A program made the translations under genes and the position numbers. From Anaerolineales bacterium (GTDB taxonomy: Bacteria > Chloroflexota > Anaerolineae > Anaerolineales > UBA11579), in assembly GCA_050115475.1 (NCBI GenBank), contig JASFQL010000012.1, positions 255-64,254 on the forward strand: a stretch of DNA of 64,000 nucleotides, read 5' to 3'. Shown one piece after another: positions 4,196-20,781 of the stretch; the first letter of the stretch is position 1, and every line of letters begins with the position of its first letter. Under the pieces are notes generated by a model. The model did no database searches. It saw nothing but the letters and a program-made list of their open reading frames with translations, and was not told the origin of the DNA.

Positions 4196-5572
4196 TTACT
4201 CAGCTAAATTATGGAAGTAATGGATCAACGCCTTGATACCTTTATACCAGGGTTCCAAAGTAAGCTTCTCGTTCGGAGCGTGCAGGTTATCATCCGGCAG
4301 TCCAAATCCACTCAAGACGGAATCGACATCCAGGATCGTCTCCATTTGAGAGACGACTGGTATACTTCCCCCCACCCGGAAATATAAGGGGGCTTTTCCC
4401 CACACGCTTTCTAGCGCCTTCGCTAAGGCTTTCACGCCCATAGAATCACGCGGGGTGATCGAAGCCGGAGCACCTGCCATCGCTTCAACTTCCCAGGTGA
4501 TGCCTTCGCTGGCATTCTCTTTCAAGTACTGGAGTAACTGCTTATGCACTTCATCCGGATCCTGTTCCGGCACCAGGCGAAACGATATTTTCGCCATTGC
4601 TTTAGAGGGTAATACGGTTTTCCCACCTTCGCCTGTGTAGCCAGAAAGGAAACCGTTCACGTCGAAGGATGGCCGCCCACCGACACGTTCGACCGGAGTA
4701 AAGCCTTTCTCTCCATCCAAAGCTTGAGCGCCGGAGAGTTTCAAGAAATAAGCTTCGTCCATTGGAAGCCTGGCGAGTTCATCCCGTTCCTCTTTATCCA
4801 TCTCCCGCACACGGTCGTAGAAACCCGGTAAAGTGATATGCCGGTTTCCATCCATCATCCCCCCGATGAGGCGGGCCAATTCGTTGGCCGGATTGACGAC
4901 CGTTCCGCCAAATATCCCGGAATGCAAATCTCCCGTTGGCCCCTGAACGTTGATCTCGAAATAAGCCATTCCCCGTAAGGCATAGGGGATCGTTGGTAAA
5001 TCTGCTCCGAGCATACCGCCGTCGGGGTTGAGGGCAAAATCGCAGCTCAACAGTATTTTGTTTTCCTCGATAAACGGCGCCAGGCTGGGGGAACCGATCT
5101 CCTCCTCCCCCTCGATGAGGAATTTAATGTTTACCGGCAGTCCTCCATGTGTATGGATGGCGTCTACAGCGCTGATACTGGCGATTACCTGGCCTTTCAT
5201 ATCCGAAGCCCCCCGTCCATATAGATTGCCATTGCGTAAAGTCGGTTCGAACGGGGGAGTCTCCCACAGGTCCAGCGGATCAGGGGGCTGGACATCATAA
5301 TGCCCGTAAATCAACACGGTCGGTGCATCTTTTCCTGCCTTCAGGCATTCAGCATACACCACAGGATGCCCAGCCGTTTTCATCACCTGGACTTCATCCA
5401 TGCCAATGTCTTTGAGCTTCTTCACCAACCAATCCGCGGCGGTTTTCATATCGTCTTTGAATTTAGAATCCGCAGATATGGAAGGAATTCTGGTCAATTC
5501 AACCAGTTCATCGAAATAGCGGTCTTTATTATTTTCAGCGTAGTCTATTGCTTCACTTCTATGATCACTCAT
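4196..5572 (-). CDS. M20 family metallopeptidase (dipeptidase-like)
   Basis: 458-aa ORF. The YGHYDVQPPDPLDLWETPPFEP...LYGRGASDMKGQ block is characteristic of M20 dipeptidases. Only 2 nt separate it from the downstream DUF1385 gene. Confidence 0.85.
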   Translation of the reverse strand: MSDHRSEAIDYAENNKDRYFDELVELTRIPSISADSKFKDDMKTAADWLVKKLKDIGMDEVQVMKTAGHPVVYAECLKAGKDAPTVLIYGHYDVQPPDPLDLWETPPFEPTLRNGNLYGRGASDMKGQVIASISAVDAIHTHGGLPVNIKFLIEGEEEIGSPSLAPFIEENKILLSCDFALNPDGGMLGADLPTIPYALRGMAYFEINVQGPTGDLHSGIFGGTVVNPANELARLIGGMMDGNRHITLPGFYDRVREMDKEERDELARLPMDEAYFLKLSGAQALDGEKGFTPVERVGGRPSFDVNGFLSGYTGEGGKTVLPSKAMAKISFRLVPEQDPDEVHKQLLQYLKENASEGITWEVEAMAGAPASITPRDSMGVKALAKALESVWGKAPLYFRVGGSIPVVSQMETILDVDSVLSGFGLPDDNLHAPNEKLTLEPWYKGIKALIHYFHNLAE

Positions 5573-6298: not shown

Positions 6299-6943
6299 AT
6301 GGTCAAGGACATGAAAAAGAAAAACAATTCTCGATGGCTCCTATGGGCGCGTGAGATTCAAGCCTTAGCCCAAACCGGTAATACGTATGCCCAAAACGAG
6401 TTCGATGCCCAGCGCTACCATCGCCTCACGGAGATCGCCGCAGAGATCATCGCCTCTCATTCCAACTTGACAGAAAACGAACTGATGGAAATCTATAAGG
6501 GGCAGCAAGGCTACGCCACGCCCAAAGTAGACCTGCGGAGCGCCGTCTTCAATACTGATGGAGAGTTGTTGATGGTCCAGGAGCGTATTGACGGTACCTG
6601 GACGATGCCAGGGGGATGGGCCGACGTTGGGGACGTCCCCTCGGAGGGGGCTGAACGAGAGGTGTGGGAAGAAGCTGGTTTCAAAGTTAAAGCCGCCAAA
6701 GTGGTGGGTGTGTATAATGTGAAATTCCCACCGGGAATGATTTTATTTCACCTCTATAAAATCGTCTATTTATGCGACCTGATCGAGGGGAAAGCCCGTC
6801 CCAGCATCGAGACCACCGACGTGCGTTTTTTCAAGCGTGAGGATATTCCCGAAGATTTATTAGGATTCCGCACGACTGTCCGCCACATCGACGACGCCTT
6901 CAAAGCCCACACCGATTCATCCCTACCGACTGTGTTCGATTAG
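6299..6943 (+). CDS. NUDIX hydrolase with N-terminal Nudix_N_2-type helical domain
   Basis: 214-aa ORF with Nudix box GGWADVGDVPSEGAEREVWEEAGF (GX5EX7REUXEEXGU). The N-terminal WLLWAREIQALAQTGNTYAQNEFDAQRY block is typical of this subfamily. Confidence 0.85.
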   Translation: MVKDMKKKNNSRWLLWAREIQALAQTGNTYAQNEFDAQRYHRLTEIAAEIIASHSNLTENELMEIYKGQQGYATPKVDLRSAVFNTDGELLMVQERIDGTWTMPGGWADVGDVPSEGAEREVWEEAGFKVKAAKVVGVYNVKFPPGMILFHLYKIVYLCDLIEGKARPSIETTDVRFFKREDIPEDLLGFRTTVRHIDDAFKAHTDSSLPTVFD

Positions 6944-6960: not shown

Positions 6961-8310
6961 ATGTTAATTACCAATGGGAAAATTATCACCTGGGAAAAAG
7001 AAAATCGGATCCTCGAAGATCACGCCATCTATATAAAAGATAAACTCATCACCGAGATCGAACCCCAGGTAAAGCTCGAGAAAAAATATCCGGATGAAGA
7101 AAAGGTCGATGCAGGCGGCCAATTCGTTATGCCGGGGAATATCTGCGCCCACACCCACTTCTACGGCGCTTATGCACGCGGAATGGCAATCACCGGGAAC
7201 CCACCCAAAGACTTCCCAGAAATCCTGGAAAAATTGTGGTGGCCGCTGGACAAAGCTCTCGATGAAAACAGCGTCCGCCTATCAGCGCTGGTACATCTGG
7301 TTGACGCCGTCAAACACGGCACTACCACATTGATCGACCACCACGCTTCCCCCAACTTCATCCACGGTTCACTGGACGTCATTGCAGATGCTGTCGATAG
7401 TTCGGGATTACGGGGTGTCTTGTGCTACGAAGTGACCGACCGTGATGGTGTGGATAAAGCTGAAGCAGGAATCTCTGAAAACACCCGCTTCATCCAGCGG
7501 CTCCATGAAGAAAAGTTAGCGGACGGACGCCTTGCCGCCACTTTCGGCCTGCACGCCAGCCTGACCCTCTCCGATGAGACCCTGGACGCCTGCGTTGAAG
7601 CCGCCGAGGAGGGCTGCGGCTTCCACCTCCACGTGGCCGAGCATGAAGTAGATGAGTATGACAGCCTCTACAAATCCGGTCTGCGCGTCGTTGACCGCCT
7701 GCAAAAACACGGTCTGTTGGGGCCGCGCTCGATCGTCGTCCACGGCGTACACATCGACGCCGCCGAAATGGCGCTCTTAGCCGAAACCGGAACCTGGCTC
7801 ACCCACCAACCCCGCTCGAATATGAACAACGGCGTGGGCCTCCCCGAAGTTGAACAGATGATGCGTATGGGTGTGAAAGTGTGTCTGGGTAACGATGGCT
7901 TCACCCAGGACATGTGGACGGAATGGAAGACGGCCTACCTCGCCCATAAACTTTGGCACCGCGATCCCCGCCGCATGACCGGGATGGACGTCGTTCAAAT
8001 GGCAATCTACAACAACGCAGCCCTGGCTGGTGTCTTCTTCCCGGATGCTCCCCTGGGGATACTCACCCCTGGCGCGTATGCCGACCTCATCTTCGTCGAT
8101 TACCACCCCACCACGACCCTCACCCCCGGCAACCTCCCCTGGCACATCATCTTCGGCTTCCATGAAAGTACGGTCACCAGCACGTTGGTCGCTGGAAAAT
8201 TCCTCATGCGAAACCGCAAGCTGCTCTCTCTTGATGAGGCTGAGATTACTGCGCAGGCGCGTGCATTGGCTCCTCAAGTTTGGGAACGCTACAACCAATA
8301 CGCCCAATGA
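6961..8310 (+). CDS. Amidohydrolase family protein (SsnA / chlorohydrolase-like)
   Basis: 449-aa ORF with a metal-binding HTHF motif near the N-terminus, HVAEH, and length and layout like SsnA-type aminohydrolases. Confidence 0.75.
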   Translation: MLITNGKIITWEKENRILEDHAIYIKDKLITEIEPQVKLEKKYPDEEKVDAGGQFVMPGNICAHTHFYGAYARGMAITGNPPKDFPEILEKLWWPLDKALDENSVRLSALVHLVDAVKHGTTTLIDHHASPNFIHGSLDVIADAVDSSGLRGVLCYEVTDRDGVDKAEAGISENTRFIQRLHEEKLADGRLAATFGLHASLTLSDETLDACVEAAEEGCGFHLHVAEHEVDEYDSLYKSGLRVVDRLQKHGLLGPRSIVVHGVHIDAAEMALLAETGTWLTHQPRSNMNNGVGLPEVEQMMRMGVKVCLGNDGFTQDMWTEWKTAYLAHKLWHRDPRRMTGMDVVQMAIYNNAALAGVFFPDAPLGILTPGAYADLIFVDYHPTTTLTPGNLPWHIIFGFHESTVTSTLVAGKFLMRNRKLLSLDEAEITAQARALAPQVWERYNQYAQ

Positions 8311-9176
8311 TCCATCCCGGTCTGGCAGATAAACCGATCCCCCCTGATATCGATCTCACCTGGGAACAAATCGCCCGAAAAGTCAACGACCACACTCTGG
8401 CCGTCCAGTTGTGGCTGGATACGCGTTCCCCGACCGCATCCAGATACGATGGCCTGGGGGTATCTTGCGGCGCTACCGGCATCCAGGTTCCTCTCCTCAA
8501 CCAGGCATTGGGTGCCAACTATCCACCCAACTGCCCATCGGATGAAATCGCAAGTGAGATTCAGGCCGTTCGTTCCTTCTTTGAAGACCTCGGCGTTCCG
8601 TATTTTTGGTGGCTCAGCCCCTTCTGCCGGCCAGACGATATGCCCAATTACCTGGAAAGAAGCGGATTGTCCGGTCGTGACCGTCCCCTTCCCGCCATGG
8701 CCGCTTTTTTAGATTCAGAGATTGAATATAAAAAAGATCCTGAGATTGAGGTATGGAAAGCCAAAGACATCGATGATTTGAAAACAGCGGGTTTCATCCG
8801 CTATACAGGCTTCCGCTTCCCCGAAGGAATTGGCCTGGATTATTTCGAAGCCATGCCCGGTGCCTGGCTCGATCCAGATGGACCTGCCCACCTCTACCTG
8901 GCTGCGATCCGTGAGGGTCCACCAGCAGCTATCGGCGCATTGATTTACGGGGCAGAGATGCCCGGTGTATATGTGATGGCGACCCTGCCGGAATGGCAGC
9001 AGAAAGGCCTAGGCAAGGCTATCCTCGCCCATATTTTGGAAGAAGCCGCAGCGCATTCAGGTGCCCCCATAATTGGCCTCACTGCTTCCCCCATCGGTTT
9101 TAGGCTTTACAGTCAGTTTGGTTTCACGCATATATTTGATTATCGAATTTATCATACCCACCCAAATGCATCTTAA
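8307..9176 (+). CDS. GNAT family acetyltransferase (C-terminal GNAT fold)
   Basis: I moved the start from the track position 8280 to ATG 8307, which overlaps the TGA of the amidohydrolase (ATGA at 8307-8310). The C-terminal QQKGLGKAIL...GFRLYSQFGF is a GNAT acetyl-CoA motif. Confidence 0.65.
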   Translation: MIHPGLADKPIPPDIDLTWEQIARKVNDHTLAVQLWLDTRSPTASRYDGLGVSCGATGIQVPLLNQALGANYPPNCPSDEIASEIQAVRSFFEDLGVPYFWWLSPFCRPDDMPNYLERSGLSGRDRPLPAMAAFLDSEIEYKKDPEIEVWKAKDIDDLKTAGFIRYTGFRFPEGIGLDYFEAMPGAWLDPDGPAHLYLAAIREGPPAAIGALIYGAEMPGVYVMATLPEWQQKGLGKAILAHILEEAAAHSGAPIIGLTASPIGFRLYSQFGFTHIFDYRIYHTHPNAS

Positions 9177-9208: not shown

Positions 9209-10279
9209 CTATAAATTTTTCCTACCTCCTCGCTTGAAAGCCTGATAACCCTGACCAATCCAAAAACTTTTCCCAGCTCCATTCCAGTTAAAAACCTTCA
9301 CTTCTATAAGAGAGATACTATTATCCACAAAGAATTTTCCGAGTGATTGCTCCAATTTTCGTGCATACCCTCTACTCTGATACTTGGGGAGATGAATAAA
9401 ATCAACGATTGAACCGATATTTTCACACGATGCCATAAATCTCGGGGCTGGGCAAGGCACGATTTCTCCAACCATAAATCCAATTATTGCGTCACCATCT
9501 TTAGCAATGATTATCCTTGAAGAAGGACTGTGCAGATGCTTTTCAATCAACTCCATTAGGAATTTTCTTGATTGTTGTTTATTTCTTATCGTGTCTTTGA
9601 GAAACGGATCATCCGCGTTTTTTGTAATGGTCGCAACTTCTTCATATAAATCGAGTAGTTGTGGCAAGTCTTCAGACACCATTTCCCTGATAACGAAATG
9701 ATTGTTTTCTGGAAAAGCATCGTTTTCAAATTCATTTCTTCCTCCCCCTTCTCCGGATACTTGCTTTCTCATCATTTCATAAAAAGTTTGATAACCATAT
9801 TTGGGCCAGGTATTGGCAGCAAGTTCATTCCCTAAAAAATAATCTAGCTCCACCCATTGCATCCCTTTATCCTTAAAGAATGTGGTTAAACTACTCTCAA
9901 GTTTTCTCATGATCCCTTGCTTCCGGTAAGGTTCCAGGATATGAGCCAAATCCAAATACCCCACTTCTAAACCGCTTGATATGCATAGAGGGACAGAACA
10001 ATTCATCACCCTTCCATCAACAAGTCCAACCACCTTACTATCGATCACAGCTACGAATATGGCCCGATTCGGGTCGGCAGCTTTCACGATTTTCCGTAAA
10101 CCGGCCACATTCTCTTCTCGGATTCTTTCCTGATTTTCCAGTTTCGCAGAACTATCCCTGTAAGCATCCTTAACCCCTCTAATCGCATAAAGGCCCTGAG
10201 TGAGATATATTTCCGCAGTTCCTTCAACATCAACTTCTGTTATCAGTCTGATATCCATTGTTTTGTCCTTCCAACCCAT
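9209..10279 (-). CDS. Tandem-GNAT (two acetyltransferase domains) protein
   Basis: 356-aa ORF with two GNAT cores, RKQGIMRKLE...YGYQTF and QSRGYARKLE...QGYQAF, each preceded by an (A/V)IIGF/VVGLV strand motif. Confidence 0.7.
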   Translation of the reverse strand: MGWKDKTMDIRLITEVDVEGTAEIYLTQGLYAIRGVKDAYRDSSAKLENQERIREENVAGLRKIVKAADPNRAIFVAVIDSKVVGLVDGRVMNCSVPLCISSGLEVGYLDLAHILEPYRKQGIMRKLESSLTTFFKDKGMQWVELDYFLGNELAANTWPKYGYQTFYEMMRKQVSGEGGGRNEFENDAFPENNHFVIREMVSEDLPQLLDLYEEVATITKNADDPFLKDTIRNKQQSRKFLMELIEKHLHSPSSRIIIAKDGDAIIGFMVGEIVPCPAPRFMASCENIGSIVDFIHLPKYQSRGYARKLEQSLGKFFVDNSISLIEVKVFNWNGAGKSFWIGQGYQAFKRGGRKNL

Positions 10280-10490: not shown

Positions 10491-11153
10491 ATGAACCAAA
10501 AACCAACCATCGCCATTCTTGGTGGGACAGGCAGCGAAGGCACCGGTCTCGCCATGCGTTGGACTCACGCGGGATACAAGATTATTATCGGTTCACGCCA
10601 GACCGAGAAAGCAGAAACCATCGCTGCTGAATTGAACGAGGAGATGGGCACGGATTCGATCACCGGATTACAAAATGATGCCGCTGCCCGGGCAGCTGAC
10701 ATCTGTGTGCTGACTGTCAAGCATACTGCCCATAAATCCGCCTTGGAGAGTTTGAAAGATTCCCTGCAGGGGAAAATACTCGTGGATGCCACCGTGCGGA
10801 TCGATTTCCGAGACCCCATCCCCCCTTCCCCTCCCTCTGCTGCCCGTATCGCCCAGGACATCCTTGGCAGCGGGGTCATGGTAGTGGCTGCCTTTCAAAA
10901 CGTCCCTGCCAGCGCGCTGAAAAAAGATTTAAGCAAGCCTGTCGATGCGGATGTGCTGGTCTTTGCCGATGACGTAGTTGCCTCCACCCAAGTGGCCGCC
11001 CTCACAGAAGACGCCGGGATGCGCCCGTTTTATGCAGGTGGATTGGATAACGCCGTCGTCGCTGAAGGCATCACCGCCGTCCTCATCAGCATGAACAAAC
11101 ATTACCGGGGCCACGGAACCATCCAAATTACGGGAATTACTAAAGACAAGTAA
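10491..11153 (+). CDS. npdG: NADPH-dependent F420 reductase (Fno/NpdG)
   Basis: 220-aa ORF with the Rossmann motif IAILGGTGSEGTGLAMRW and GYKIIIGSR, typical of NpdG. GGAGG lies 8 nt upstream of the ATG. Confidence 0.85.
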   Translation: MNQKPTIAILGGTGSEGTGLAMRWTHAGYKIIIGSRQTEKAETIAAELNEEMGTDSITGLQNDAAARAADICVLTVKHTAHKSALESLKDSLQGKILVDATVRIDFRDPIPPSPPSAARIAQDILGSGVMVVAAFQNVPASALKKDLSKPVDADVLVFADDVVASTQVAALTEDAGMRPFYAGGLDNAVVAEGITAVLISMNKHYRGHGTIQITGITKDK

Positions 11154-11163
11154 CGGGTTGTTT

Positions 11164-11919
11164 ATGCCCCTGACGATAACCCCGCTTGAGGGTATCCCCC
11201 TCATCCAAAAAGGAGATGACTTATCCGAAATAATATTGCATTCCTTAATTAATATGCAAATTATTTTACACGATAGTGACCTCCTCGTTTTTACCCAGAA
11301 GATCGTGTCCAAATCCGAAGGTCGCCAGGTATATTTGCCTGATGTAACCCCTTCACCCGAAGCCCAAGAGCTGGCTGCAGAGACGGAAAAAGACCCTCAC
11401 CTCGTGGAGATGATCCTGCGAGAAAGCAAACAAGTGTTGCGCAAACGCCCGGGATTAATCATCGTTGAACACAAACTCGGTTTTATCTGCGCCAACGCCG
11501 GCATCGATCATTCCAACGTAAATGGATCGGATGATTGGGTCCTCCTCCTCCCAGAAAACCCTGATGCTTCCGCCGCGTCCTTGCGACGTTCACTTGAACA
11601 GGAAACCGGTGTTCGATTGGGAGTATTGATCATCGATTCTCACGGACGAGCCTGGCGCAACGGCACCGTGGGGATCACCATCGGTCTGTCCGGCCTGCCG
11701 GGTCTGGTCGACCGGCGCGGTGAGATCGACCTGTTAGGTTATGAAATGAAGGTCACCCAGGTGGGTGCTTCCGACGAAGTAGCTGCCGCCGCATCCCTGG
11801 TGATGGGGCAGGTCGCAGAAGCTTCTCCGGTCGTTCATGTGCGCGGTTTCCCCTATCCTCTTCGAGAGGCTTCTTTGACCGAGCTCCTTCGCCCAGAAGA
11901 GCAGGATTTGTTCAGATGA
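11164..11919 (+). CDS. cofE: Coenzyme F420-0:L-glutamate ligase (CofE / FbiB N-terminal module)
   Basis: About 250-aa ORF (the track starts at TTG 11158; ATG 11164 is preferred). The motifs QKIVSKSEGR, ANAGIDHSN and IIDSHGRAWRNGTVG are CofE hallmarks. Confidence 0.85.
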   Translation: MPLTITPLEGIPLIQKGDDLSEIILHSLINMQIILHDSDLLVFTQKIVSKSEGRQVYLPDVTPSPEAQELAAETEKDPHLVEMILRESKQVLRKRPGLIIVEHKLGFICANAGIDHSNVNGSDDWVLLLPENPDASAASLRRSLEQETGVRLGVLIIDSHGRAWRNGTVGITIGLSGLPGLVDRRGEIDLLGYEMKVTQVGASDEVAAAASLVMGQVAEASPVVHVRGFPYPLREASLTELLRPEEQDLFR

Positions 11920-11927
11920 GGTCTTGA

Positions 11928-12470
11928 ATGTACGGGATTGTCACGCTTTTAGACGATAAACACACAGCCAGGGTTGAAGCACTGTGGGAGGAACTCCAAA
12001 AATCCTGCGGCTTGACCTGCATCCAGATGGCGCCCCTCCCCCACTTCTCCTGGCACATCGCCGAGGAATATGATTTCGACAGACTCGAAGATAAACTCGC
12101 ACACATCGCAAAGAAGACGAAACCATTCACCATTCATACAGCAGGAATGGGCCTGTTCACCGGAGAAAAACCGGTCGTTTACATCCAAATCGTGAAAGAC
12201 CGCCGCCTACTTGATCTGCACCAACACATCTGGGAAGAGATTCAGCCCATAAGTTCAGGGATCAATCTTTTATACGCGCCAGACCAATGGATGCCCCATA
12301 TCACCTTAGCGAACCAGGATGTGAACGATGATATTCTCCCATGTATTTTCTCGACATTGGTCTGGCGCGCCTTTACCTGGGAGATTGAAGTAAACTGCTT
12401 TGCCCTTGGTTTTCAAAACGAAGACACACCTGGCGAGATCACCAAAACCTTCCCATTGAATCCCTCATAG
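11928..12470 (+). CDS. 2H phosphoesterase superfamily protein (LigT / 2'-5' RNA ligase-like)
   Basis: 180-aa ORF carrying the two H-x-(S/T)-x motifs of the 2H fold, PHFSWH and PHITLA, at the expected ~90-aa spacing. Confidence 0.7.
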   Translation: MYGIVTLLDDKHTARVEALWEELQKSCGLTCIQMAPLPHFSWHIAEEYDFDRLEDKLAHIAKKTKPFTIHTAGMGLFTGEKPVVYIQIVKDRRLLDLHQHIWEEIQPISSGINLLYAPDQWMPHITLANQDVNDDILPCIFSTLVWRAFTWEIEVNCFALGFQNEDTPGEITKTFPLNPS

Positions 12471-12556
12471 GTGTTTTATTCGAATTGAAATAATCATAGT
12501 TCCAAGAATGGGGAGTTGATGAGAATCATTTACAATATAAATCACACGGAGGTGCC

Positions 12557-13168
12557 ATGGATAAAGAACCGACCTTCTGGGATGTTGTCAAAACCCGCCG
12601 GTCCATCCGCACATTCGAAGACCGGCCTGTGCCCCCTGAACTCATAAAAAAATTACTCGAAACTGCCGTCCTGGCCCCCAGCGCCCATAATGCCCAACAC
12701 TGGCGTTTTGTAGTAGTGACCAAAAATGAAGACAAGCGCCGCCTCGCTGAACGAATGGGGATCGATTACAGGGAATCCCTCCTCGCCCAGGGGATGCCAC
12801 CCGAAGAAGTCCAGAACCGGTCAGAAACACGAATAGTACGCATCAGCAGTGCGCCTGCAATCATTTTACTCTGCCTGGATACAAAGGACGTACATAATTT
12901 CAACGACGCCAACCGGTCCGACGGCGATTACCTCATGGGGGCCCAGAGTGTCGCCCTGGCAGGGGGGCACCTCCTCCTGGCAGCCCACGCCGAGGCTTTA
13001 GGGGCTGTGTGGGTGTGTGCACCGCTCTTCGCCCCGGAACGCGTCAGGGAAGCACTCGACCTGCCCTCAAACTGGATCCCTCAGGGGATGATCTCCCTCG
13101 GCTACCCGGCGGAACAACCCAGAAGTAAGACTATGAAAACACTAGAAGAGGTCGTGAAATTCATATGA
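12557..13168 (+). CDS. Nitroreductase-family protein resembling the FbiB C-terminal (dehydro-F420-0 reductase) module
   Basis: 203-aa ORF with the RRSIRTF, APSAHNAQHWRF and GAVWV motifs of the FMN nitroreductase fold. Located between cofE and cofD. GGAGG lies upstream of the ATG. Confidence 0.75.
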   Translation: MDKEPTFWDVVKTRRSIRTFEDRPVPPELIKKLLETAVLAPSAHNAQHWRFVVVTKNEDKRRLAERMGIDYRESLLAQGMPPEEVQNRSETRIVRISSAPAIILLCLDTKDVHNFNDANRSDGDYLMGAQSVALAGGHLLLAAHAEALGAVWVCAPLFAPERVREALDLPSNWIPQGMISLGYPAEQPRSKTMKTLEEVVKFI

Positions 13169-13214
13169 AAGCTTTTTCCCTGATAACTAATTCCCGTTAC
13201 CCGATCCCCAGCCC

Positions 13215-14132
13215 ATGAAAGTTGTTGCCCTCGCCGGGGGTGTTGGCGGCGCCAAACTCGCCGATGGCCTCGCCCATAATCTCCCCCCCCAAGACCTCAC
13301 CATTATCGTCAACACCGGGGATGATTTCGAGCACCTCGGTTTATCGATCAGCCCGGACCTGGATACGGTCTGCTACACCCTGGCAGGAATCGCCAACCCG
13401 GAGACCGGCTGGGGGCGAGTCGATGAGACCTGGCAAGTCATGGACAACCTCGAGGTACTCGGCGGCCCTGCATGGTTCCGCCTGGGAGATAAAGACCTCG
13501 CCACCCATTTGGAACGTACCCGCCGCCTAAAGTCCGGTGAGCCTTTGAGTGAAATCACCGCATACTTTTGCAAAGCATGGGGAGTGGGGCCAGTAGTGCT
13601 GCCGATGAGTGACCAACCGGTACGGACCATCGTCATCACCGGTCAGGGTGAACTACCCTTTCAGGAGTACTTCGTCGCCCAGCGATGCGAACCCAAAGTG
13701 ATGGGTTTTCGATTTGATGGCATCCAATCCGCTGTCCCCGCCTCTGGCGTTCTGGAAGCCATTCAAGAATCCGATGCCGTGATCCTTTGCCCCTCCAATC
13801 CCTGGGTGAGTATTGATCCCATTCTCAATGTTCCGGGCATCTCGCCTGCTTTACGTGAAAAGCATGTTTTAGGTGTCTCCCCCATCATCGGGGGAAAAGC
13901 CCTGAAAGGCCCGGCAGCGAAGATGTATAATGAATTAGGCATCACCCCTTCTGCTCAAGCTGTCGCCGATCATTACGGGGATCTATTGGATGGCTTTGTG
14001 ATAGATATAATTGATAAAGAACTAACAAAACTTTTAAGTTTGAAGACCCTGGTTGCTGATACAATAATGAGGAGGCAAGAAGATAGAATCAGATTAGGCG
14101 AAGAGGTATTGTCCTTTACAAGAGAACTGTGA
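13215..14132 (+). CDS. cofD: 2-phospho-L-lactate (or EPPG:FO) transferase CofD/FbiA
   Basis: 305-aa ORF with N-terminal VVALAGGVGGAKLADGL, NTGDDFEH and LCPSNPWVSI motifs diagnostic of CofD. Confidence 0.9.
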   Translation: MKVVALAGGVGGAKLADGLAHNLPPQDLTIIVNTGDDFEHLGLSISPDLDTVCYTLAGIANPETGWGRVDETWQVMDNLEVLGGPAWFRLGDKDLATHLERTRRLKSGEPLSEITAYFCKAWGVGPVVLPMSDQPVRTIVITGQGELPFQEYFVAQRCEPKVMGFRFDGIQSAVPASGVLEAIQESDAVILCPSNPWVSIDPILNVPGISPALREKHVLGVSPIIGGKALKGPAAKMYNELGITPSAQAVADHYGDLLDGFVIDIIDKELTKLLSLKTLVADTIMRRQEDRIRLGEEVLSFTREL

Positions 14133-14231
14133 TTATTCAGGGCTCGACTAATTTCCAATTACCAGAGCATCCTGATATTTCCAAGGAGATCGAAACTGGT
14201 AAGAAAACAATTGAGAAAGGATAAACCCTAA

Positions 14232-14915
14232 ATGGCATTATGGGCTGTTGTCCCTGTCAAACCGCTACGCCGGGGGAAGTCCAGACTGGCTGGTGTGCTT
14301 TCAAACGAAGAACGGACCTCACTTAATCGCAAGCTATTGGCGCATACAATTGATACCCTGGTCGAACTCCCCGATCTGGAACACGTCTTGGTAGTCAGCC
14401 GCGACCCAGAAGCTTTAGCCCTGGCGCGCGATCGCGGCGCTCGCACGGTTTTAGAAGACGGTGCGCCGCACCTGAATATCGCCTTGACCAGAGCGACCGT
14501 CATTGCTACGACATATGCCGCCCAGGGAATATTGATCCTTCCCGCCGACCTCCCCCAAATAAGTGCAGAAGATATCCATACCATGATTACAGCCGGGCAG
14601 GATCCTCCTGTTGTGGTCATCGCGCCCGATTACCGTCGTGAAGGCACCAATGCCTTGTTGGTCAATCCTGCCGGACTGATTCAATATGACTTTGGCCCAA
14701 ACTCATTCGAACGTCATGTCGCCCAGGCCGAAGCTAAAGGCGCCGAGGTGAAAGTACTCGACCTCCCCTCACTCGCCCACGATGTGGATTTACCGGAAGA
14801 CCTTACTTTCCTCAATGGACAATTGAACCTTTGGACTTCGGGAGAAGAAGATAAGGACGAGGGATACCGGGGGTATTACCGGGAATTGGCAGCCGAGGAC
14901 GAGGAGCAGGGTTAA
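14232..14915 (+). CDS. cofC: Phosphoenolpyruvate/2-phospho-L-lactate guanylyltransferase CofC/FbiD, with acidic C-terminal tail
   Basis: 227-aa ORF. The WAVVPVKPLRRGKSRLAGVL opening and GTNALL motif are typical of CofC. The last ~30 aa are Glu/Asp-rich (SGEEDKDEGY...AAEDEEQG). Confidence 0.85.
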   Translation: MALWAVVPVKPLRRGKSRLAGVLSNEERTSLNRKLLAHTIDTLVELPDLEHVLVVSRDPEALALARDRGARTVLEDGAPHLNIALTRATVIATTYAAQGILILPADLPQISAEDIHTMITAGQDPPVVVIAPDYRREGTNALLVNPAGLIQYDFGPNSFERHVAQAEAKGAEVKVLDLPSLAHDVDLPEDLTFLNGQLNLWTSGEEDKDEGYRGYYRELAAEDEEQG

Positions 14916-14950: not shown

Positions 14951-14990
14951 CGCAGTGATAGGATCGATGATCCACCTCTGCGATTTTTTT
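14951..14990 (+). terminator. Probable intrinsic terminator of the F420 cluster
   Basis: CGCAG (14951-14955) pairs with CTGCG (14978-14982) around an inner GGATC-GAT-GATCC hairpin. A T7 run follows at 14984-14990, 36 nt after the cofC stop. Confidence 0.45.
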
Positions 14991-18885: not shown

Positions 18886-19644
18886 TTACTGCTCTTTCAA
18901 CCATCCCGCCCCCACTGCCAGAGCGACACATCCCAATAGCGCCGAAAAACCGCCGATAAGGTATTTCCTTTTCTTGAACGCTGCCGCACTCAGCACGCCC
19001 AATCCAACACTCGTGGCAAGGTTGACCTTTCGAACGACATCGTCGGCTTGTGCTGGTGTGCTTCCACGTTCCACCAGCGACCATTTCAAGATAGGACCGC
19101 CGTCAATGCCTGGAATTGGAAGGAGTGAGACGGTCGCTAAAAAAGTATTCATCCCCACCGCAGCTTCAGCAACATCCCGGGCGGGTGAATCCTTACCTGT
19201 AAAATGTCGGGCTAGCAGGGCTACAGGCAGGATCGCCAGGTTGAAGAGCGGCCCGCCAAGCGCGCGGGTGACATGTTGTCGAGGGCTGACGCTGGTATCT
19301 TGGACGTCGAAGTATATCAAGATCGGCATCCCCCAGGTGATGCGTATGGCATCCACCGGACCCCCGACGAGTTTGGCTGCTGCGGCGTGAGCAAGGTTGT
19401 GGCACCATTCCGATCCGAGGATCACACACGTTGTCATCCCCCCAACACCGATTCGCTCCCCCCAGGATCGTGAAGGGCGTTTTTTCCCGGCAAACCAGGT
19501 CATAATTCCCCACAGGAGAATCTGGGTGAGAGGCAGCCAGGTGTTCCCTTTGACAGCGAGTGGCGTATCGAAGACCTTACCGACATGATTGAGGCCGGTT
19601 TTGTGAGCGGCAATTGAGTGCTTGCTTTCCATGGAAGTCATCAT
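18886..19644 (-). CDS. M50/site-2-protease-like polytopic membrane protein with degenerate zinc motif
   Basis: 252-aa ORF. HNLAH (nt 19387-19401) sits where M50 proteases carry HExxH. The downstream LLPIPGIDGGPIL matches the NxxPxxxLDG-type M50 motif. Confidence 0.55.
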   Translation of the reverse strand: MMTSMESKHSIAAHKTGLNHVGKVFDTPLAVKGNTWLPLTQILLWGIMTWFAGKKRPSRSWGERIGVGGMTTCVILGSEWCHNLAHAAAAKLVGGPVDAIRITWGMPILIYFDVQDTSVSPRQHVTRALGGPLFNLAILPVALLARHFTGKDSPARDVAEAAVGMNTFLATVSLLPIPGIDGGPILKWSLVERGSTPAQADDVVRKVNLATSVGLGVLSAAAFKKRKYLIGGFSALLGCVALAVGAGWLKEQ

Positions 19645-19785: not shown

Positions 19786-20781
19786 ATGGAACGTGTCGCA
19801 TTATATTTACAAGACTCACACAACCTGCGTGATGGTTTGGATTATGTGAGATATGCAGAAGAAAAGGGATTTGAAGCCGTCTGGCAGGCAGAATCACGCC
19901 TCGTGCGTGACGCCATCGTCCCCATGGCAGCTTACGCTGCGGTTACAGAAAAGATAAAGGTCGGTTCGGGAGTTATCAACAACTGGACCCGCAACATAGG
20001 TCTCTTGGCCGCAACCTTCCTCACACTGGACGATCTCGCCCCCGGAAGGATCATCTGCGGCATGGGCGCTTGGTGGGATCCATTGGCTCAAAACGTGGGC
20101 ATCGAACGGCGTAAACCCCTCCTGGCGATGAAGGAGACCATCGATGTTCTCCGGAGGTTGCTGAACATGGAACGGGTCACTTTCCACGGCGAATTCCACC
20201 ACGTCGATGGGATCGAACTCGACGTTGTCCACGGGCGGCGTGAACCCCGTGATGTCAAAATCATGATTGGGGCAACCGGGCCGAAGATGATTGAAATGAC
20301 CGGAGAGATCGCCGATGGGATTGTCCTCAACTACTGCGTTCCCCCTGAGTACAACGAGATGGCGATGGAGCGTTTGGAAGCTGGCGCTAAGAAAGCCGGC
20401 CGCAAACTGGACGATATCGACCGCCCCCAACTCGTCGTTTGTTCTGTCGACAAAGACCACGATAAAGCCATCGACACTTCCCGTGAGCTTCTCACCCAAT
20501 ACCTCGCCCAGCAGCCCCACATCGCCAAGGCGTCCGGTGTCTCACAAGATGTCGTGGCGGAAATTCAATCCATCCTCGGTTGGCCTGCAACCCACGAGCA
20601 GATCCAGGCAGCCAAACACCTTGTTCCCGAAGACCTCATCCTGCGGATCACAGCATCCGGCACGCCGGATGAAGCTCGCGCCAAGGTACAGCAGTATATC
20701 GATAACGGCGCTACCTGCCCGATCATGTACCCCGTGGGAGGCGACGTTAATCTTCTCATTGACACATTCGCGCAAACCTGA
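19786..20781 (+). CDS. LLM-class (luciferase-like) F420-dependent oxidoreductase
   Basis: 331-aa ORF with AGGAGG upstream. The N-terminal [16 protein letters not shown] and overall TIM-barrel layout are typical of the Mer/LLM family. Confidence 0.8.

Follow-up and report, generated by a model that had tools for sequence, protein, structure and literature searches.

An Old but Optional 2H Phosphoesterase Gene Behind cofE in an F420 Side-Chain Operon of Anaerolineales

Introduction

In Thermomicrobium roseum, a member of the Chloroflexi, dehydro-F420 is reduced by an independent homologue of the FbiB C-terminal domain, named FbiE, and further independent FbiE homologues are known from several predicted F420 producers (PMC8498797). 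The actinobacterial fbiB is a fusion of cofE and fbiE and is considered a derived state (PMC8498797). A cluster of the unfused kind is present in the stretch of DNA analyzed here (the window), which comprises 64,000 nucleotides (nt) from an Anaerolineales bacterium (GCA_050115475.1, contig JASFQL010000012.1). As in T. roseum, the locus encodes a monofunctional CofE and a separate nitroreductase resembling the FbiB C-terminal domain, with the nitroreductase gene located between cofE and cofD and a route through phosphoenolpyruvate (PEP) and dehydro-F420-0 implied. The locus differs in belonging to the class Anaerolineae, in carrying a gene for a 2H phosphoesterase between cofE and fbiE, in that no synthase for the head group FO (7,8-didemethyl-8-hydroxy-5-deazariboflavin) was found, and in the placement of the cassette within a urate-degradation block.

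Enzymes of the 2H family open five-membered cyclic phosphodiesters or cleave phosphodiesters beside a vicinal hydroxyl. The genomic setting of the cassette also has a described counterpart: according to a 2025 preprint on reductive urate metabolism, YgfK/UacX is replaced in the SsnA clusters of Chloroflexota by a reductase of the luciferase family that is putatively F420-dependent (bioRxiv 10.1101/2025.05.19.654654).

Both the tail genes of F420 synthesis and a free-standing FbiE are textbook biology. What is new at this locus is a 2H phosphoesterase with intact motifs whose place in the F420 cassette has stayed the same through the deepest divergences within its family, in a fixed order with two further unassigned accessory genes. 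The explanation we favor, at a rough probability of 0.42, is an F420 tail operon with an old, optional 2H gene whose product would clean up a by-product of the pathway.

The F420 Operon

ORF calling and profile searches place six co-directional open reading frames (ORFs) on the + strand at 10491–14915, each of which matches its expected family.

10491–11153, + strand: fno/npdG, NADPH-dependent F420 reductase that recharges the cofactor (TIGR01915, 189.7 bits against a cutoff of 149.8; PF03807)
11158–11919, + strand: cofE, F420-0:gamma-glutamyl ligase (TIGR01916, 274 bits against 180.7; PF01996, E = 3e-74)
11928–12470, + strand: YjcG-like 2H phosphoesterase of 180 residues (PF13563, 49.9 bits against 27)
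12557–13168, + strand: fbiE, stand-alone nitroreductase-fold protein, putative dehydro-F420-0 reductase (PF00881, E = 3e-32; TIGR03553, 136 bits)
13215–14132, + strand: cofD/fbiA, phospho-lactyl/enolpyruvyl transferase acting on FO (TIGR01819, 317.5 bits against 257.5)
14232–14915, + strand: cofC/fbiD, guanylyltransferase (TIGR03552, 157 bits against 105; motif FGPNS)
About 14951–14989, + strand: candidate intrinsic terminator, a two-tier hairpin followed by U7 (minimum free energy −12.9 kcal/mol, z −1.98)

Gene order, orientation, and family assignments agree with an earlier sequence-only reading of this DNA, including the HFSW and HITL motifs of the 2H protein. Fno, CofE, CofD, and CofC all exceed their curated equivalog cutoffs, and the nitroreductase alone of the five core proteins does not. 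The short gaps described in that reading measure 4, 8, 86, 46, and 99 nt in the order fno-cofE-2H-fbiE-cofD-cofC. The cofE stop codon lies 8 nt ahead of the 2H start, and a GAGG is found 8 nt ahead of the 2H ATG; the two genes are probably cotranscribed. A terminator had been proposed only after cofC, and a hairpin with a U7 tract is indeed found there, having been overlooked by a generic terminator scan because its loop is long. Within the cluster, the generic scan for promoters and terminators returned counts no higher than those of shuffled sequences, and a search of the cluster and its surroundings for riboswitches or other RNA elements returned no Rfam family at E ≤ 0.1. These genes constitute an operon for assembly and recharging of the F420 side chain.

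Family, Fold, and Conserved Residues of the 2H Protein

Both H-x-S/T motifs are present in the 2H translation, as HFSW at residues 39–42 and HITL at residues 124–127. H39 and H124 are invariant in a 19-sequence alignment and 99–100% conserved over 150 sequences labeled as linked or unlinked to F420 genes; both catalytic His are invariant within the linked set, and the His motifs are common to the two groups. A bilobed 2H fold is supported by an AlphaFold2 model (predicted local distance difference test 93.8, predicted template modeling score 0.88), for which the top Foldseek matches are all 2H enzymes (YjcG, cyclic phosphodiesterase (CPDase), LigT, AKAP18, and Usb1) at a probability of 1.00.

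The nearest solved relative is the uncharacterized YjcG of Bacillus subtilis (2D4G), which is the best match both by profile (E = 7e-8) and by Foldseek (E = 6e-9, TM ∼0.7) and which shares the two H-x-S/T motifs and a size of ∼170–180 residues. Identity to YjcG is only ∼21%, and the linked clade differs from it in two respects, a Cys27/Cys139 pair of its own and a location in F420 operons. The protein falls below the cutoffs of both YjcG (NF010223/PRK13679, 46.8 against 129 bits) and ThpR (TIGR02258, 33.5 against 65.7 bits). The canonical ThpR of this genome is a separate gene on another contig (G000:C35:788-1336, L182; TIGR02258, 129 bits), located between a response-regulator gene and ndk. 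Judged by its motifs and profile matches, the 2H protein is catalytically intact, YjcG-like, and distinct from ThpR. With ThpR/LigT and the plant CPDase acting on ADP-ribose cyclic phosphate (Appr>p; 1FSI, 1JH6) it shares the 2H fold and the catalytic His pair, and their opening of five-membered cyclic phosphodiesters serves as the model for the activity proposed below, with the difference that the substrate here may not be a nucleotide.

The two Cys residues set the linked genes apart: Cys27 is conserved in 99% of linked and 19% of unlinked 2H genes, and Cys139 in 95% and 4%, respectively. By analogy with the plant CPDase, one possibility is that the pair could act as a redox switch.

Distribution and History of the cofE-2H Linkage

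Linked 2H genes recur well beyond this genome. Among the best 80 species-representative 2H loci, 13 lie beside F420 genes, 12 of them with cofE directly upstream, and 55 of the best 80 metagenome loci are F420-linked. The metagenome loci were retrieved with an alignment query, a single-protein query having returned nothing. The nearest metagenome proteins show 61–78% identity. The gap between cofE and 2H has a median of 8 nt over 65 complete junctions and is ≤30 nt in 55 of them. None of these 2H genes has an internal stop and all but one (64/65) keep the H-x-S/T motifs, at identities of 33–56% to the window protein.

A maximum-likelihood tree was built from 163 rows, consisting of 73 linked genes, 77 unlinked genes, 12 of unknown context, and the genome's own ThpR as the single outgroup. 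The linked/unlinked label changes 4 times on this tree, compared with ∼50 times when labels are shuffled. When rooted on ThpR, the linked genes form a basal comb, and the unlinked genes fall into two derived clades of 27 and 57 rows (support 88 and 84), a polarity to be read with the very long outgroup branch and hence uncertain root, the modest backbone support, and a metagenome sample seeded with window-like motifs in mind. Neighbors of the unlinked homologues show only lineage-local synteny, with no recurrent alternative partner. It is safe to conclude that the cofE-2H linkage is an old one, that it has one or a few origins, and that it extends across the deepest branches of the subfamily.

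The cassettes themselves follow a single order wherever examined: ssnA-fno-cofE-[2H]-[PPase-like]-[F420 PPOX]-[FbiE]-cofD-cofC-LLHT, where LLHT denotes an F420-dependent luciferase-like oxidoreductase and the bracketed genes are optional but never permuted. All four optional genes are present in L012, L017, L107, and L197, and the window keeps 2H and FbiE. The simplest explanation for this combination of fixed order and variable occupancy is that a fuller ancestral operon has lost different genes in different lineages.

Two occupants of the slot are absent from the window. An ORF of 117–134 residues directly follows 2H in many cassettes (L012:6527-6931, L017:6531-6908, L002:6543-6896, and others); it gives only weak matches to inorganic pyrophosphatases and belongs to no NCBIfam family, and it could serve to remove the pyrophosphate made by CofC. 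A PPOX gene (∼131 residues; TIGR03618 F420-dependent PPOX-class oxidoreductase, 98.8 bits against 79) is another repeated occupant, located after cofE/2H and ahead of FbiE/cofD (L012:6928-7329, L004:6602-6997, L087:4713-5114, and others). PPOX is sometimes present without FbiE, which raises the question of whether it replaces FbiE as the dehydro-F420-0 reductase.

Accessory Step or Passenger

The sequence-only reading had offered two fates for the 2H gene, an accessory step or a passenger. A linkage that is old, tight, and recurrent, with 73 linked genes, favors the former, and the absence of the gene from most orthologous cassettes counts against it. As a passenger, the protein would be a general YjcG-like 2H enzyme acting, for example, on 2′,3′-cyclic nucleotides, RNA ends, or ADP-ribose cyclic phosphate. 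A single capture of its gene behind cofE, in an early ancestor of Anaerolineae, would have been followed by co-inheritance and cotranscription through inertia and by free loss, and the protein would have no role in F420 metabolism.

A number of observations weigh against a pathway role and, for the most part, speak for such a passenger. The co-occurrence check suggested by the earlier reading was run on two samples. In the class sample (301 genomes, 142 with cofE), 2H adjoins cofE in only two genomes, that of the window and that of L088. In the order sample (121 genomes, cofE in 107 and a 2H homologue in 19), the two genes are adjacent in 8 of the 107 cofE genomes, spread over 5 of 18 families, with two further cofE/2H cases at contig edges. 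The gene is thus missing from ∼92% of orthologous cassettes in the order and ∼99% in the class, so that the refuting observation named in that reading, a lack of 2H in orthologous F420 clusters, holds for most clusters, although 73 linked genes were found in total. All genomes (6/6) of a sister genus from the family of the window have cofE and none has 2H, and 2H is likewise missing from all genomes of family f2 (8/8 in the class sample, 9/9 in the order sample). Homologues at 39–42% identity occur in cofD-less genomes (Brassicibacter, Tissierella, and a metagenome-assembled genome of Acidobacteriota). The 2H protein also diverges much faster than its neighbors, at 33–56% identity compared with 56–76% for CofE and 81–86% for LLHT. 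A search among longer proteins turned up no fusion of 2H with an F420 enzyme, a negative that carries little weight, and a literature search returned no paper linking F420 with a 2H phosphoesterase. The cyclic-phosphate by-product discussed below is itself inferred from chemical reasoning only. A passenger history also accords with the ∼4 label changes on the tree, which fit one capture followed by vertical descent, and with the closest solved relatives being nucleotide and RNA cyclic phosphodiesterases together with the uncharacterized YjcG.

Other features are harder to reconcile with inertia. A canonical ThpR already exists in the genome, and at 33–56% identity the 2H gene is still intact, with both motifs kept and ∼8 nt from cofE. 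A conserved Cys pair characterizes the linked clade, and the other slot occupants of known family, FbiE and the TIGR03618 PPOX, are F420-related. Because 2H is missing from most orthologous cassettes and has relatives in F420-free genomes, we consider a passenger, itself somewhat short of an even chance, about equally likely as a role in by-product clean-up. As a member of the F420 cassette, the 2H gene is old but optional: F420 synthesis does not require it, yet the gene is more than a chance insertion. Should it prove a mere passenger, the locus would caution against inferring function from operon position.

A Possible Role in By-Product Clean-Up

By analogy with the known families, CofC would activate PEP (or 2-phospho-L-lactate, 2-PL) with GTP, CofD would pass the activated PEP or 2-PL to FO, the free nitroreductase FbiE would reduce dehydro-F420-0, CofE would append glutamates, and Fno would reduce F420 using NADPH. 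The 2H protein may then act on by-products of the CofC/CofD steps, hydrolyzing either a cyclic phosphodiester with a five-membered ring or a labile phosphodiester; an example would be a ribityl 4′,5′-cyclic phosphate arising from the collapse of dehydro-F420-0 or F420-0. The benefit of such an activity would be recovery of scarce FO or disposal of a dead-end product, with the core pathway able to run without it.

Three considerations lead to this proposal: the chemistry of the 2H family, the instability of the CofC products and of dehydro-F420, and a supply of FO that is probably scavenged. Dehydro-F420 is described as unstable, as are lactyl-2-diphospho-5′-guanosine (LPPG), enolpyruvyl-diphospho-5′-guanosine (EPPG), and 3-(guanosine-5′-diphospho)-D-glycerate (GPPG) (PMC8498797, PMC8764529). 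Hydrolysis of a cyclic or labile by-product, as repair or as FO salvage, is a tentative assignment to which we give slightly less than even odds. The fuller claim, that 2H is a previously unrecognized repair or salvage cyclic phosphodiesterase of F420 in FO-auxotrophic Anaerolineae, regaining the FO head group or disposing of a toxic or dead-end cyclic phosphate upon collapse of labile EPPG/LPPG or dehydro-F420-0, and forms, with the PPase-like ORF and PPOX, an undescribed accessory layer, is doubtful at present. If 2H does act on a by-product of the pathway, it would be the first known F420 repair or salvage enzyme, with possible help for heterologous F420 production, where unstable intermediates limit yield.

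Stand-Alone FbiE and the Side-Chain Route

CofE of the window is monofunctional, with 253 residues, its own stop codon, and no nitroreductase domain, and the nitroreductase is encoded by a separate ORF ∼640 nt downstream; no single-polypeptide FbiB (CofE-nitroreductase fusion) is encoded at this locus. The description of this arrangement as FbiB split into CofE and a nitroreductase therefore holds as regards the two separate ORFs but not as a novelty, since it is the already known unfused state (PMC8498797). The best NCBIfam match of the nitroreductase is the FbiB C-terminal domain (TIGR03553, E = 1e-39), although its 136 bits fall below the cutoff of 249.55. Its closest match in the PDB is the C-terminal domain of Mycobacterium tuberculosis FbiB (4XOM, E = 1e-27). 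The gene lies between cofE/2H and cofD here and at the same position in many related cassettes, being found between cofE and cofD in about half of 40 cassettes drawn from the class and order samples.

Evidence on the route also comes from CofC, in which one diagnostic residue distinguishes the 3-phosphoglycerate (3-PG) type of Mycetohabitans (Ser) from the 2-PL/PEP type (Gly) (PMC8764529). Alignments to 7P97 and 6BWG show that the FGPNS motif of the window protein has Gly at the position that corresponds to S162 in the Mycetohabitans enzyme and to G163 in M. tuberculosis FbiD. Gly is likewise found in each of the related cassettes compared (38/38), those with 2H only among them. By sequence, the motif fits a PEP or 2-PL route. 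The sequence-only reading had taken the stand-alone nitroreductase as a pointer to the PEP/dehydro-F420-0 route, and both 4XOM as its best solved relative and the Gly-type CofC strengthen that view. A 3-PG route, in which GPPG would collapse to glycerate 2,3-cyclic phosphate as the substrate of 2H, was rejected on account of Gly rather than Ser in the window and the 38 cassettes.

Some cassettes have 2H and lack FbiE. The order fno-cofE-2H-cofD-cofC is found in L088 (G208, a complete genome), L201, L202, and L025, with CofC still of the Gly type. No FbiE homologue was detected at E ≤ 1e-10 anywhere in the genomes with these 2H-only cassettes (family f3, including the complete genome of L088).

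FO Synthase and the Source of the Head Group

The sequence-only reading had noted that FO synthase lies outside the window. No cofG, cofH, or fbiC was found in the window, nor in the remainder of the 4.32-Mb genome (91.5% complete), with no match to TIGR03550 and a best match to TIGR03551 of 20 bits; the host therefore probably must take up the FO head group. A search for cofH in 10 other genomes with linked 2H, one of them a complete single contig, also found none. In the class sample, cofH scores above its curated cutoff in only 15 genomes, and a true cofH is missing from ∼90% of cofE-bearing genomes, with or without 2H. FO auxotrophy thus looks like a rule in the class Anaerolineae rather than a peculiarity of 2H clusters. 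That most Anaerolineae with cofC/D/E have no FO synthase implies widespread dependence on FO from neighboring organisms. A tie between the presence of 2H and the loss of FO synthase was considered and rejected as not specific, as cofH is equally absent from 2H-less cofE genomes.

Scavenged FO invites the alternative that 2H serves cofactor turnover, cleaving the ribityl-phospho-lactyl diester of imported, damaged, or surplus F420-n or F420-0 and thereby freeing FO or FO phosphate for reuse in an FO-auxotrophic cell. FO synthase was found in no linked genome tested, phosphodiester cleavage next to a vicinal hydroxyl is the chemistry of the family, and the gene stands between those of the ligase and the transferase. 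Auxotrophy is nevertheless no predictor of 2H, given that FO synthase is also missing from most 2H-less cofE genomes; the N-terminus (MYGIV) shows no evident signal peptide, so that the protein could not act on extracellular F420; and cleaving the product of its own pathway would be futile. We regard turnover as improbable.

Many Anaerolineae also carry paired CofH-like radical-SAM genes that score ∼260–330 bits, under the cofH cutoff of 374. These are probably MqnC/MqnE-type enzymes of the futalosine pathway rather than FO synthase.

The Surrounding Urate Block

Genes flanking the cassette place it in a wider metabolic context.

4196–5572, − strand: M20 dipeptidase-like hydrolase, recurrent upstream of fno in many related loci
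6299–6943, + strand: Nudix hydrolase (PF12535 (Nudix_N) and PF00293), recurrent upstream of ssnA, with the order nudix-ssnA-fno in many loci
6961–8310, + strand: ssnA aminohydrolase, marker of the reductive urate pathway (NF005540, 522.8 bits against 444), beside fno-cofE in most related loci
8280–9176 and 9209–10279: two GNAT genes, which separate ssnA from fno in this window only
19786–20781, + strand: LLHT (PF00296, E = 7e-66)

The cassette is part of a block assigned to the reductive urate pathway in its Chloroflexota variant. Features of the window shared with the reductive uric-acid (2,8-dioxopurine) cluster, as presented in the available part of the preprint, are SsnA, an XdhD/YgfM-type molybdenum enzyme, an M20 hydrolase, and an F420-type LLHT; in the window, ssnA and LLHT lie on either side of the F420 cassette. 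F420 tail genes embedded in the cluster, and the slot for 2H, the PPase-like ORF, and PPOX, are seen here and are not described in that part of the preprint (bioRxiv 10.1101/2025.05.19.654654). The window further differs by an insertion between cofC and LLHT, which are ∼4.9 kb apart and are separated by a dtxR/mntR-feoA-feoB segment (from 15174) and then a minus-strand gene at 18886–19644.

This setting suggests yet another function for 2H, namely purine supply, in which the enzyme would belong to the ssnA/LLHT urate block and turn RNA-derived 2′,3′-cyclic purine nucleotides into feed for purine catabolism. The cassette does lie inside the nudix-ssnA...LLHT block in most loci, and this block is the predicted F420 variant of the reductive urate pathway in Chloroflexota. 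However, 2H is always located in the F420 sub-cluster, with cofE as its immediate upstream neighbor, and in no case adjoins ssnA or xdh genes, and many ssnA-F420 blocks are without 2H. None of 67 unlinked homologues (genome loci) has ssnA or LLHT within 6 kb, and an M20 gene is near only two, so that a tie between unlinked 2H and purine-degradation genes was rejected. Purine supply is accordingly very improbable.

LLHT is the most conserved gene of the block, being 81–86% identical to the gene directly after cofC in other loci. Its NCBIfam matches include many Mer-like and F420-dependent LLM-class (luciferase-like monooxygenase) families, all under cutoff. Every F420 gene is single-copy and within this window, and the genome has one strong LLHT; F420 may thus serve mainly the urate pathway in this organism.

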